The translations under genes were made by a program, and so were the position numbers. The notes beneath the pieces were generated by a model. That model was not told the DNA's origin and ran no database searches. It saw only the letters and a list, made by a program, of their open reading frames with translations. 64,000 nt of DNA from Candidatus Acheromyda pituitae (lineage in GTDB: Bacteria > Chlamydiota > Chlamydiia > Chlamydiales > Rhabdochlamydiaceae), in assembly GCA_019634675.1 (NCBI GenBank), contig JAHCAX010000008.1, positions 14,158 through 78,157 of the forward strand. The letters run 5' to 3'. Shown one piece after another: positions 52,179-54,916 of this stretch. Numbering within the stretch: position 1 is the first letter of the stretch; each line of letters opens with the position of its first letter.

Positions 52179-52903
52179 TCAACAACGCCTTCTATGACGA
52201 TCTAAACGATGCCTGGTATGAAGATGAATGCCATCCGATCGCCCTATTGCGCGCTGAAAATGCGGTCCGCAATCCTTGGATATTGAAAACGGTGCGGGAT
52301 TATGGAAAAAAAGGATGCCGCATCCTGGACATCGGCTGCGGAGGAGGACTGCTCTCCAATGAACTCAGCAAAGCGGGCCATGTTGTCACAGGGATTGATC
52401 TTTCCCAATCAAGCCTCGACCAGGCCAAAAAAAGGGATGAAAGCAAAAGGGTCGAGTACATTTATTGCAACGCAGAAAAAATCCCTTTTGAAGATGAGAC
52501 GTTCGATGTTGTCTGTGCGATGGACTTTTTAGAGCATGTCGAAAAACCTGAGGCGATCATTCAAGAGGCCAGCCGACTGCTTAAGCCGGGAGGCCTCTTT
52601 TTTTTTCATACCTTCAATCGCAATATTTGGAGCTATCTGTTGGTGATCAAGTGCGTCGAATGGCTGGTGCCCAATGTTCCGCGCAACATGCACGTCTATA
52701 ACTTATTTATCCGCCCCGACGAGCTGAAGAGCATGTGCTTGAAATCAGGCCTTCACATGAGGTCGATCCAAGGACTGATGCCCGATATGAAGAGCAAAGA
52801 GTTTTGGAAAAGCTTTGCCAAAAGAAAGATCTCTTCCGACTTCCGCTTTGTCTTCACACCCTCAATTAAAGTCGGATTTGTGGGATTTGCATGCAAAGGC
52901 TAA
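52175..52903 (+). CDS. class I SAM-dependent methyltransferase (UbiG-like)
   Basis: ILDIGCGGGLLSNELSKAG motif I, FDVVCAMDFLEHV and LKPGGLFFF motifs. Confidence 0.85.
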   Translation: MINNAFYDDLNDAWYEDECHPIALLRAENAVRNPWILKTVRDYGKKGCRILDIGCGGGLLSNELSKAGHVVTGIDLSQSSLDQAKKRDESKRVEYIYCNAEKIPFEDETFDVVCAMDFLEHVEKPEAIIQEASRLLKPGGLFFFHTFNRNIWSYLLVIKCVEWLVPNVPRNMHVYNLFIRPDELKSMCLKSGLHMRSIQGLMPDMKSKEFWKSFAKRKISSDFRFVFTPSIKVGFVGFACKG

Positions 52904-52907
52904 TTGC
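52814..52907 (+). repeat. 94-bp direct repeat copy 1 (3' end of the methyltransferase gene)
   Basis: Matches 54823-54916 with 3 mismatches. Confidence 0.9.
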
Positions 52908-52916
52908 AAATTCCAT

Positions 52917-54563
52917 TCAAGGTCTAAAGTAGTTCATTTGCATCGCGTCTTTGGGAAGGATACGGTTAGAGGCTATCCCTGTTCCAAGGGCGCTCATCAC
53001 CTCGATGAGTTCCGGCTCTGAATCCGTCAAAGATGGATCTTCCTGTAAAATTTGAGAAAAGCCAAATCTCTGCTCTTTTTCAAGCAGGGCCTCATGAGCA
53101 TCTGTAAGCGCCATAAGTCTCATCTGGGCTGGTCTAACCTGATGAACCTCTTCAAAATAGTCCTTTCCTGAGACGAGATGGTATGCGATCCTAAAGAGTC
53201 CATAGCTATCTGCTTTTTTCCCTGATCTTATTTGTGAAGGTTTAATGTTTTCTACTGGATGATAAGCAAAATCACCGCCTCGACTCATTCTTAGACTTTT
53301 CCCTTCTTGTGTTGAAGAGCCAAAATCAATCAATTGCACTTTTCCTGATGGAAGCATGATCACGTTGGAGAGTTTGATATCACGGTGGCAAATACCGTTA
53401 TCATGGAAGGCTGCAACACCCTCGCAAAGGCCTTTTAAGATTTCTCTAATTTGATCTTTTGAAAATTTTTGATCTTTCAATTGCTCTAAATCAACGGAAC
53501 CTTCTGTGAAATTGCCGAGTGTTCCGATTGCGTAGAACTCTCTACCATCCTCTAACTGATCATAACAATCCATCAGCAATTGAGCTTGATCTCGATCCAT
53601 TATTTTAAATCCTTCCAATTGGTCCCAAACAAGAATATGGGAATTGGCAGCTACATTGGGATGTTCAACAACTATGCTTAGCCATTCCCCTCCAATCCTA
53701 TTTTTATTTAGCCTGTAGGCCTTAGATTGATCTGGATTGTTGAATCCATAAATGGGAAAGAGTCTTAAAACTTTTTTTTCTTCAGATTCATTTTGTTCCA
53801 TAATGAAAACACCTGAATTTGAACCCTTACCAAAAGGCTGAATAGACAGATACCCAAAATGGGTAGTAAGCAAATCTAGAACTTCAACAGCCCAGGAATC
53901 TGTGAGCGCTCTCGTCGAATGGCGATAAAACACCTGAACTATTTTTTCGTAATTAGTGTCTTTAAGACTTGAAAGAGCCTCTTTTCTTTTGAATGCATTC
54001 ATTACAGGATCTAGCGCAGCATAACCTTTAGCTCCTTCCATTCTTAAGACATTATCTGTTAATAGGACAGCTCTCGATGGGCTTTCTGCCTTTTCAGAAC
54101 AGTCATTGATTCGGCAACTGGTCAAACAAGCGTGACTTTTCGGTATTAGCCTCTCGTTGTGTAAAGGATAAGATGTCTTTTCATCTGCATCATAGCCGCC
54201 TAAGGAATTAGACATGCTCTGTCTTGAGCATCGACTGTAAGATGAACTGGCTTTTCCAACTGTGGGTTGCGAAATAGATATCCTATCGTCTACATCATAA
54301 CCGCCTAAGGAATCCGACATGCTCTGTCTTAAACAGTGGCTGTCAGATGAACCAGCTTTTCCAACTCTAGGTTGCGAAATAGATATCTTATCCTCTGAAT
54401 CATAACAACTCTCCGACAGCTTCTCCGTTTTAGTAGAGTCTGTTGAATCGGATTCAGTCAAATCAATCCAACTTAAACCAGAAGAAGCATCACCTGACGA
54501 AATTTTTAAAAAGCTCATTTTATTACCTTTTTGATTTCCTCGATGCATTAAATTGTATGACAT
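52917..54563 (-). CDS. eukaryotic-like (Hanks-type) Ser/Thr protein kinase with repeat-containing Ser-rich N-terminal region
   Basis: GKGSNSGVF glycine loop, CHRDIKLSNV catalytic loop, IDFGSS. Visibly AT-richer than flanking genes. Confidence 0.8.
   Translation of the reverse strand: MSYNLMHRGNQKGNKMSFLKISSGDASSGLSWIDLTESDSTDSTKTEKLSESCYDSEDKISISQPRVGKAGSSDSHCLRQSMSDSLGGYDVDDRISISQPTVGKASSSYSRCSRQSMSNSLGGYDADEKTSYPLHNERLIPKSHACLTSCRINDCSEKAESPSRAVLLTDNVLRMEGAKGYAALDPVMNAFKRKEALSSLKDTNYEKIVQVFYRHSTRALTDSWAVEVLDLLTTHFGYLSIQPFGKGSNSGVFIMEQNESEEKKVLRLFPIYGFNNPDQSKAYRLNKNRIGGEWLSIVVEHPNVAANSHILVWDQLEGFKIMDRDQAQLLMDCYDQLEDGREFYAIGTLGNFTEGSVDLEQLKDQKFSKDQIREILKGLCEGVAAFHDNGICHRDIKLSNVIMLPSGKVQLIDFGSSTQEGKSLRMSRGGDFAYHPVENIKPSQIRSGKKADSYGLFRIAYHLVSGKDYFEEVHQVRPAQMRLMALTDAHEALLEKEQRFGFSQILQEDPSLTDSEPELIEVMSALGTGIASNRILPKDAMQMNYFRP
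54188..54397 (-). repeat. in-frame 105-bp tandem repeat x2 inside the kinase gene
   Basis: 54188-54292 and 54293-54397 encode ..ISISQPRVGKAGSSDSHCLRQSMSDSLGGYDVDD.. and ..ISISQPTVGKASSSYSRCSRQSMSNSLGGYDADE.. Confidence 0.85.
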
Positions 54564-54822
54564 AATAATTTTTATTGTATAAAGAATTGTCGCTTATATT
54601 ATTTTCCTGTTATTGCATTTACTGTAATTATAACTTGTTAATTATCAATAAGAAGTGAAACAATAAAAACAGATATTATTATAAGTGACAGAACCGTGGA
54701 TAAATTGGTCAAGACATCTAAATTTCAGGAACTTAGAGATAGAAAGAAACGGCAATATGTGGAGTTATACTGCACCTGATCATGCTTGAAATCCAGCCTT
54801 TGACAGATATAAAGAGCAGAGG

Positions 54823-54916
54823 TTTGCCAAAAGGAAGATCTCTTCCGACTTCCGCTTTGTCTTCACATCCTCAATTAAAGTCGGATTTGTGGGATTTGCT
54901 TGCAAAGGCTAATTGC
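54823..54916 (+). repeat. 94-bp direct repeat copy 2 (orphan copy of the methyltransferase 3' end; also encodes the C-terminus of the - strand ORF 54871..55350)
   Basis: Matches 52814-52907 with 3 mismatches. Confidence 0.9.

Follow-up and report, generated by a model that had tools for sequence, protein, structure and literature searches.

The stretch of DNA analyzed here, a 64,000-nt segment of contig JAHCAX010000008.1 of Candidatus Acheromyda pituitae (positions 14,158 to 78,157 of the forward strand; referred to as the window, with positions counted from its first letter), contains a protein kinase gene that lies between two direct repeats, each carrying the 3' end of a neighboring methyltransferase gene. 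From left to right, the locus comprises an open reading frame (ORF) of 242 aa for a UbiG-type O-methyltransferase (52175–52903, plus strand), the ORF of a Hanks-type protein kinase of 548 aa (52917–54563, minus strand), the conserved lineage-specific gene ORF159 (54871–55350, minus strand) and its conserved upstream partner ORF203 (55354–55965, minus strand). The two repeat copies, 52814–52907 and 54823–54916, are identical at all but 3 of 94 positions; without gaps, the match reaches 52811–52907 and 54820–54916 (93 of 97 positions identical; blastn E = 1e-41 for the second copy within the window). This pair is the sole dispersed direct repeat of at least 35 nt in the window, the 2 other repeats being tandem and intragenic. 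Copy 1 forms the 3' end of the methyltransferase ORF, which ends with ...SDFRFVFTPSIKVGFVGFACKG and the stop codon; copy 2 lies outside every methyltransferase ORF and is an orphan in this sense. On its opposite strand, copy 2 supplies the final 14 codons and the stop of ORF159, which ends with ...AFASKSHKSDFN. Between the copies, the kinase ORF is the single substantial ORF with a family match, and the remainder is AT-rich spacer. The GC content drops to 0.31–0.43 over positions 53000–54800 versus 0.45–0.49 in the flanks, and the GC content at third codon positions (GC3) of the kinase gene is 0.337 versus a window mean of 0.506 (SD 0.084). The first-pass annotation of this DNA had already described 94-bp direct repeats with 3 mismatches, the true methyltransferase end in copy 1 and an orphan in copy 2, about 15 final codons of ORF159 contributed by the latter, and an interval between the copies that holds only the kinase gene and AT-rich DNA and is AT-richer than both flanks; each of these points was reproduced upon recomputation, the last of them by the GC and codon-usage profiling that the annotation had itself proposed.

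To place this arrangement in context, the state of the site was compared across roughly 10 lineages. In GCA_018239665.1 (L001) and an independent Logan assembly (L002), the methyltransferase gene and a 167-aa ORF159 homologue are convergent and overlap by 42 nt, with no kinase in between. Three assemblies of a second lineage (L021, which is ERZ27258486, L022 and L023) likewise show the empty site and a 42-nt overlap. A single stretch of L001, 10637–10722, aligns to both repeat copies of the window, and the L001 neighborhood is syntenic, with TauE, type III polyketide synthase, a 171-aa ORF and the methyltransferase on one side of the site and ORF159, ORF203, redoxin, EamA, malic enzyme and TLC on the other. 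The inserted segment proper, 1840 nt at 52908–54747 that comprise the kinase gene and ~230 nt of AT-rich upstream DNA, has no counterpart in any of these five assemblies. The outgroups L012 and L014 lack the kinase as well. Given empty sites in two lineages and kinase-free outgroups, the kinase-free state is ancestral.

Both junctions of the insert are covered not only by the window but also by four other independent assemblies, namely JGI 3300028901 (L007, a 274-kb contig), Logan SRR10823761 (L008), JGI 3300024349 (L009) and ERZ12294693 (L024). L007 to L009 are collinear with window positions 49577–56669 (7.1 kb) at 96.6% identity, and L024 is ~94–95% identical to the window. Short-read contigs of metagenome-assembled genomes (MAGs) break at the repeat, L010 ending inside copy 2 and L003 just before it, which is the behavior expected of a real repeat. 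The L003 contig, which is 94% identical, departs from all other occupied loci at its positions 2640–2674, immediately past GGCAATATTTGGAGC (the orphan's first fragment) and 35 nt before the contig end; this reflects either a different right junction in that strain or a chimeric contig end. The search for empty sites in related genomes that the first-pass annotation had suggested thus yielded them in five assemblies of two lineages, and its picture of ancestrally convergent genes that overlapped (by 42 nt in L001/L002 and L021–L023) without a kinase is borne out. Its view that the insertion is real also holds, as misassembly, the objection it had raised against itself, is contradicted by the junctions in L007, L008, L009 and L024. 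Both flanking genes kept intact ends, again as it had supposed, copy 1 completing the methyltransferase and the right end of copy 2 completing ORF159.

The duplication is larger than its well-preserved part. When the stretch from the kinase start to copy 2 was aligned to the methyltransferase gene, it yielded a collinear chain of gene positions 442–462, 553–579, 605–629 and 637–733, which occupies window positions ~54748 to 54916. The first three fragments constitute a decayed left part of the orphan (54748–54819, plus strand) that has suffered deletions of ~90, 25 and 13 nt, and the fourth corresponds to the well-preserved 97 nt of copy 2 (54820–54916). As read from this chain, the duplication is at least 292 nt long and extends from within the methyltransferase 3' end through the TTGC that follows the stop, with 97 nt well preserved, rather than measuring the 94 bp given in the first-pass annotation. 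Copy 1 in its full inferred extent would accordingly be 52616–52907 on the plus strand (methyltransferase positions 442–733, including TTGC), as indicated by collinear matches in four lineages, and its well-preserved portion is 52811–52907. The ~90-nt and 25-nt deletions in the orphan are common to the window, L007, L024 and GCA_018239725.1 (isolate SZAS-8; L011), and the 13-nt deletion is present in the window, L007 and L024, those 13 nt being retained in L011. Deletions shared by four lineages point to a single duplication event, one that by this evidence is older than the split of the window, L007, L024 and L011 lineages. The left part of the orphan is dispensable and is decaying by deletions; the right 46 nt (54871–54916) encode the C-terminus of ORF159 on the minus strand. 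The left joint of the insert lies after ...TAATTGC, 4 nt past the methyltransferase stop, and the right joint before ...CGGCAATAT, at or before methyltransferase position 442, such that the two chromosomal joints are staggered by at least 296 nt. The boundary of copy 1 and the insert falls within an 11-nt inverted repeat (TGGGATTTGCA / TGCAAATTCCA, 13-nt loop) at 52881–52915, between the convergent stops of the methyltransferase and kinase genes; this inverted repeat may represent a shared terminator hairpin or have arisen by chance.

The first-pass annotation had regarded the insertion as a datable gene gain and the 3 mismatches between the repeats as a rough clock. The gene gain is upheld by the empty sites, but the dating by mismatches is not, as one and the same insertion shows 4 differences per 97 sites between copies 1 and 2 in the window, 12 in L007–L009 and 16 in L024. 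Flanking identities give the tree ((window, L007), L024). The orphans of L007 and L024 share 7 derived sites at which the window orphan shows the methyltransferase state, and the segments immediately beside this stretch follow the expected tree. The most economical reading is that copy 2 of the window was overwritten by copy 1 through gene conversion after the window and L007 lineages had split. Because gene conversion resets the divergence between copies, mismatches of flanking repeats are a poor clock. Judging from the sequences, the insertion predates lineages that are separated by a synonymous divergence (dS) of ~0.13–0.3 (L024), and it probably predates the L011 tract as well.

That tract emerges from a comparison of L011 with L021, two genomes of one sister species that are 99.8% identical over 7 kb of flank, with 1 mismatch per kb up to L011 position 7525, close to the site. 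The orphan copy is present in L011, together with a kinase gene 80% identical to that of the window. The gene is cut, at the equivalent of window position 53635, by an element of the IS3 family of insertion sequences (IS) with HTH_Tnp_1 and rve domains (L011 8885–10164); a 45-nt direct duplication is found at the IS junction, and the contig ends inside the IS. L021, for its part, has the empty site, with the kinase absent. From L011 position 7526 on, the two diverge abruptly: 65 nt of sequence unique to ORF159 contain 4 differences, and the adjoining 128 nt contain 15, of which 12 fall within the 97-nt repeat. Since the boundary of divergence lies outside the repeat, the presence or absence of the kinase appears to be carried by a homologous-recombination tract, i.e., allelic replacement, and not by site-specific excision. 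The replacement of insertions by empty alleles via recombination is a known process (PMC4795794). A repeat-to-repeat deletion as the origin of the L021 empty allele was also considered and is disfavored, because the divergent tract extends 65 nt past the repeat and because, beyond the rightmost difference between the L011 orphan and L021, just 6 nt of repeat sequence remain.

On comparative grounds, we regard a single ancient insertion of the 1.84-kb kinase segment between the convergent methyltransferase and ORF159 genes as established. For the history as a whole, the reading that we favor, with moderate confidence, is that of one ancient insertion which arose by one-step illegitimate joining combined with a local tandem duplication and was later subject to conversion and exchange. 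The 1.84-kb segment was joined to the chromosome at two staggered points, which left the methyltransferase end, and with it the antisense-encoded end of ORF159, on both sides. According to the favored model, both junctions would have been made in one step, by illegitimate joining at the level of microhomology that was coupled to the local tandem duplication, probably during replication and either through template switching or through annealing of DNA strands at staggered anchor points, with no transposase or integrase involved. The event would have survived because an insertion of this kind disrupts neither of the overlapping genes at the site. In the insert (52908–54747), Pfam detected neither a transposase nor an integrase domain, and no terminal inverted repeats pair 52908–52960 with 54700–54747. 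An 8-nt inverted match found after copy 1 and after copy 2 was dismissed as a chance occurrence, as it is conserved in neither L007 nor L024. Identity between the window and L001 methyltransferase genes amounts to 84.4% (positions 1–441), 84.1% (442–636) and 86.0% (637–729), and the same three segments are 92.7, 89.7 and 96.8% identical between the window and L021. With divergence from L001 being flat along the gene, both copies look native, and a foreign, element-borne origin of copy 1 was rejected in view of the lack of a divergence step.

Direct repeats of target sequence also flank insertions of IS elements and transposons. Target-site duplications typically measure a few to about 14 bp; here, in contrast, the duplication comprises at least 292 nt, and transposase and terminal inverted repeats are missing. 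The verdict of the first-pass annotation that the repeat is too long for a transposase target-site duplication therefore applies to the 97 nt preserved and to the at least 292 nt duplicated overall. A likeness is also seen with template-switch rearrangements and double illegitimate recombination in transformable bacteria, which likewise combine an insert with a local duplication and proceed without a recombinase and with staggered junctions; such related processes are treated in, for example, 10.1101/2023.11.22.568220 and PMC3784515. The cases in that literature are micro-indels or laboratory merodiploids of 100–900 kb, whereas the present locus shows a fixed duplication of ~300 nt together with a 1.8-kb gene in a natural chlamydia-like lineage. 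As a tentative specification of the favored reading, a recombinase-independent, replication-associated template switch or strand annealing might have copied a 1.8-kb effector-type gene from another place into the overlap and duplicated ~300 nt in one step.

Several points weigh against the favored reading. The mechanism that formed the junctions is deduced from its product. No copy of a donor cassette was found in the collections searched, so that microhomology at the junctions cannot be scored, and the DNA upstream of the window kinase shares nothing with that upstream of the paralogue locus. The duplication could have reached further to the left, into sequence now too decayed to be recognized. 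The case for gene conversion is built on 7 sites and a species tree drawn from flanking identity only, and site 54868, inside the supposed conversion tract, is unconverted. In L011, finally, the methyltransferase side is missing, the contig ending in the IS, and the L011/L021 exchange could have run in either direction.

Among the alternatives, Campbell-type integration, which the first-pass annotation put forward alongside a duplicative repair event, envisages a circle carrying the kinase gene and at least ~300 nt of methyltransferase 3' sequence that entered by a single homologous crossover. The geometry fits exactly, with a single homologous segment directly repeated on either side of the insert; Campbell integration, too, directly duplicates a few hundred bases of homology, in a manner reversible by recombination between the repeats. 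A length of ~300 nt would be ample for RecA-type recombination, and homologous exchange is active at the locus. We nevertheless consider this route doubtful, as the kinase would first have had to be linked to native methyltransferase sequence on the circle, and neither copy looks foreign, given their flat divergence. Furthermore, the insert contains neither plasmid or replication functions nor any vector or episome sequence, and nothing speaks for a circular donor: no circle or second cassette was found in the protein, genome and metagenome collections searched, although absence there is no proof.

A history in two steps strikes us as improbable. In one variant, a tandem duplication of ~300 nt came first and separated the overlapping genes, and the kinase entered the dispensable junction later; in the other, the kinase landed just after the methyltransferase stop and truncated ORF159, whose end was then restored from a wild-type fragment by homology-facilitated illegitimate recombination. 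Both variants give the observed end product, the site had taken up DNA once before (ORF159, which arrived between the methyltransferase gene and ORF203), and recombination with related DNA does occur here. However, the insert directly abuts copy 1 at one end and the first recognizable base of copy 2 at the other, no duplicated sequence is misplaced to the wrong side, and no intermediate state was encountered among the roughly 10 lineages. Moreover, short tandem duplications are unstable without selection.

It is very improbable, in our view, that the insert is what remains of an e14/icd-type island that entered by means of an integrase and brought along a replacement 3' end, despite an outward anatomy that equals the icd - e14 - icdC order of E. 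coli K-12, where both borders carry the gene's 3' end, the displaced copy persists as an orphan fragment, and loss of the insert fuses the copies (PMC13626634). In both cases the interrupted gene, here the methyltransferase, stays whole and its displaced end is an orphan at the far border. Out of four features characteristic of an e14/icd-type island, one was found, the direct repetition of a gene's 3' end at both borders, and three were not. The e14 element is prophage-like, 15 kb in size, and equipped with its own site-specific recombinase and a diverged replacement end, whereas the present insert measures 1.84 kb, has one kinase gene and lies between native-looking copies, and the duplicated segment, unlike that of e14/icd, also serves a second gene on the opposite strand. 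An integrase, or any gene besides the kinase, is absent from the insert in all four occupied lineages, as is a recombinase from the adjacent genes in the window, L007 and L024; copy 1 has diverged no further than the remainder of the methyltransferase gene; and the L011/L021 difference starts ~65 nt outside the repeat border, unlike what site-specific excision would leave behind. The chance that the whole arrangement is an assembly artefact, or that the 'empty' sites are collapsed assemblies of a locus with an ancestral kinase, is negligible, for although the MAG contigs L010 and L003 break at the repeat, the junctions are spanned in the window and four assemblies from different samples that are 3–7% diverged, empty sites recur in five assemblies of two lineages and the outgroups are kinase-free, and the orphan copy has its own lineage-shared deletions.

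Turning to the inserted gene itself, the kinase matches the Pfam profile PF00069 (Pkinase) with 79 bits (cut-off 31.7; E 5e-22) over profile positions 52–263; all Pfam domains detected in 52908–54747 belong to the kinase superfamily, with Pkinase as the top match. Its homologues begin with MSFLK or MTF, and the conserved start is probably Met16 at 54518, giving a protein of 533 aa. The AT-rich region upstream of it (54519–54747, minus strand; GC ~0.31) is the presumed promoter region. A promoter and terminator scan returned no more sites than shuffled sequences, and the sigma-70-like matches at 54648–54621 and 54581–54552 (minus strand) are at chance level. The best matches among solved structures are the eukaryotic kinases CDPK1 and Aurora A (E 1e-10). 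The HRDxKxxN motif of the catalytic loop (CHRDIKLSNV) and the DFG motif (IDFGSS) are present and have been kept in every family member with a catalytic domain (the P0126 sequence breaks off ahead of this domain). At the presumed beta3 (VAIK) lysine position, placed by eye in an N-lobe outside the Pfam match, the window kinase reads VLRLF (residues ~265–269, window positions ~53760–53775), with Arg in 8 of 8 members; by its sequence, a protein with an invariant Arg at this position could be an atypical kinase or a pseudokinase. The N-terminal region contains a 105-nt tandem repeat (35 aa, Ser-rich) that varies in copy number, from 2.1 copies in the window (54184–54406, minus strand) to 3.1 in L024 (6249–6573), where the kinase is 568 aa long.

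The kinase scores far below the cut-off of every NCBIfam kinase family and shows weak similarity to LegK1, XopAU and PknD. In a database of 5.8 billion proteins, 8 clear relatives were retrieved (E <= 2e-46), from chlamydia-like MAGs and metagenome contigs, and two further matches (E ~1e-6) cover a quarter of the query or less. A scan of a genome collection with the kinase alignment found only three species representatives, the window's own genome not being among them. One relative with 56% identity resides at a different locus with the order gpsA - kinase - patatin - YjeF; another, from a Simkania species (L020 7980–9426, 33% identity), is split over two frames and represents either a pseudogene or a long-read error. 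Relatives at other loci (L016, L020) have no flanking direct repeats, and the window cassette shares no nucleotide similarity with the L016 locus outside the coding sequence, giving no sign of a recurrently mobile cassette. The immediate source of the kinase was probably another chlamydia-like genome or another locus rather than a eukaryote, to judge by these relatives. The protein probably functions in host interaction. It resembles the kinase effectors LegK of Legionella and PknD of Chlamydia in its Hanks-type fold with HRD and DFG motifs and in occurring in a host-associated bacterium, and it likewise displays low GC content, patchy distribution and a repeat-rich N-terminus. Unlike these effectors, to which it would be a putative parallel, it forms a small family of its own in few chlamydia-like genomes and carries Arg at the presumed beta3 Lys position.

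The methyltransferase reaches 163.3 bits with NCBIfam TIGR01983 (UbiG), above the equivalog threshold (cut-off 102.95), and matches the class I methyltransferase families Methyltransf_11, Methyltransf_25 and Methyltransf_23 in Pfam; an exact look-up of the window protein returned no record. The ratio of nonsynonymous to synonymous substitution rates (dN/dS) is 0.03–0.05 for the methyltransferase and malic enzyme genes (0.03 for the methyltransferase), versus 0.31–0.35 for the kinase and 0.26–0.36 for ORF159, by which measure the latter two are real yet fast-evolving genes. ORF159 has no match in Pfam or NCBIfam, and metagenome scans, with the single sequence and then with an alignment, found no relatives; homologues are present in L001 (167 aa), L007, L011, L021 and L024, i.e., the gene is confined to L001 and the crown clade. 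The idea that ORF159 is a diverged duplicate of ORF203 was rejected (hhalign probability 0.3%). L012/L013 and L014 are devoid of both the kinase and ORF159, and in them the ORF203 homologue adjoins the methyltransferase, overlapping its 3' end by 41 nt in L012 (6737–7348) and lying 405 nt away in L014 (7134–7676). The position of ORF203 next to the methyltransferase in these distant relatives implies that the same gene boundary gained DNA twice, ORF159 first and the kinase later. On the other side, the genes at 49560–52903 encode a TauE-family permease, a type III polyketide synthase, a 171-aa membrane ORF and the UbiG-type methyltransferase, and this cluster, which is conserved in all relatives, resembles phenolic-lipid or quinone clusters.

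The organism is an uncultured bacterium of the PVC group, and MAGs nearly identical to it carry the NCBI label 'Verrucomicrobia bacterium'. The gene content of the window, however, with a TLC nucleotide transporter and with leucine-rich repeat and ankyrin proteins, together with methyltransferase relatives labeled Chlamydiae and a kinase relative in Simkania, points to a chlamydia-like bacterium. A second variable site lies 5 kb from the first: a low-GC gene for an AraC/GyrI-like regulator (59450–60331; GC 0.37, GC3 0.30) sits between the malic enzyme and TLC transporter genes in the window, L011 and L021, is absent from L007, L009 and L024, which have a spacer of 28–73 nt, and is replaced in position by a cation ATPase gene in L001; its distribution does not fit the flank tree. 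Other genes of low GC3 (0.34–0.39) are located at 16124–18133, 35341–37269, 40068–40982 and 45356–46771 and include an ankyrin-repeat protein gene and a gene with a 78-nt tandem repeat (40758–40913). These are likely further accessory or host-interaction genes.

Taken as a kind of event, the insertion is a known and fairly ordinary footprint of gene gain, if a well-documented one, and introduces no new mobile element or system. Its value lies in being an unusually clean case of natural gene gain at a place where two genes share their 3' ends, with empty, occupied, IS-disrupted and re-emptied states all sampled. It illustrates that an insertion at overlapping gene ends is tolerable when the overlap is duplicated, and that the redundant part of the copy then decays while the part encoding a gene end is kept. 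It also documents the turnover of a 'eukaryotic-like' kinase among uncultured chlamydia-like bacteria. If the template-switch reading is true, the locus would represent a natural, fixed bacterial case of 'tandem duplication with templated insertion' by which an obligate intracellular lineage gained a gene, and the resulting repeat would lend itself to gene conversion and to gain and loss that can be reversed.

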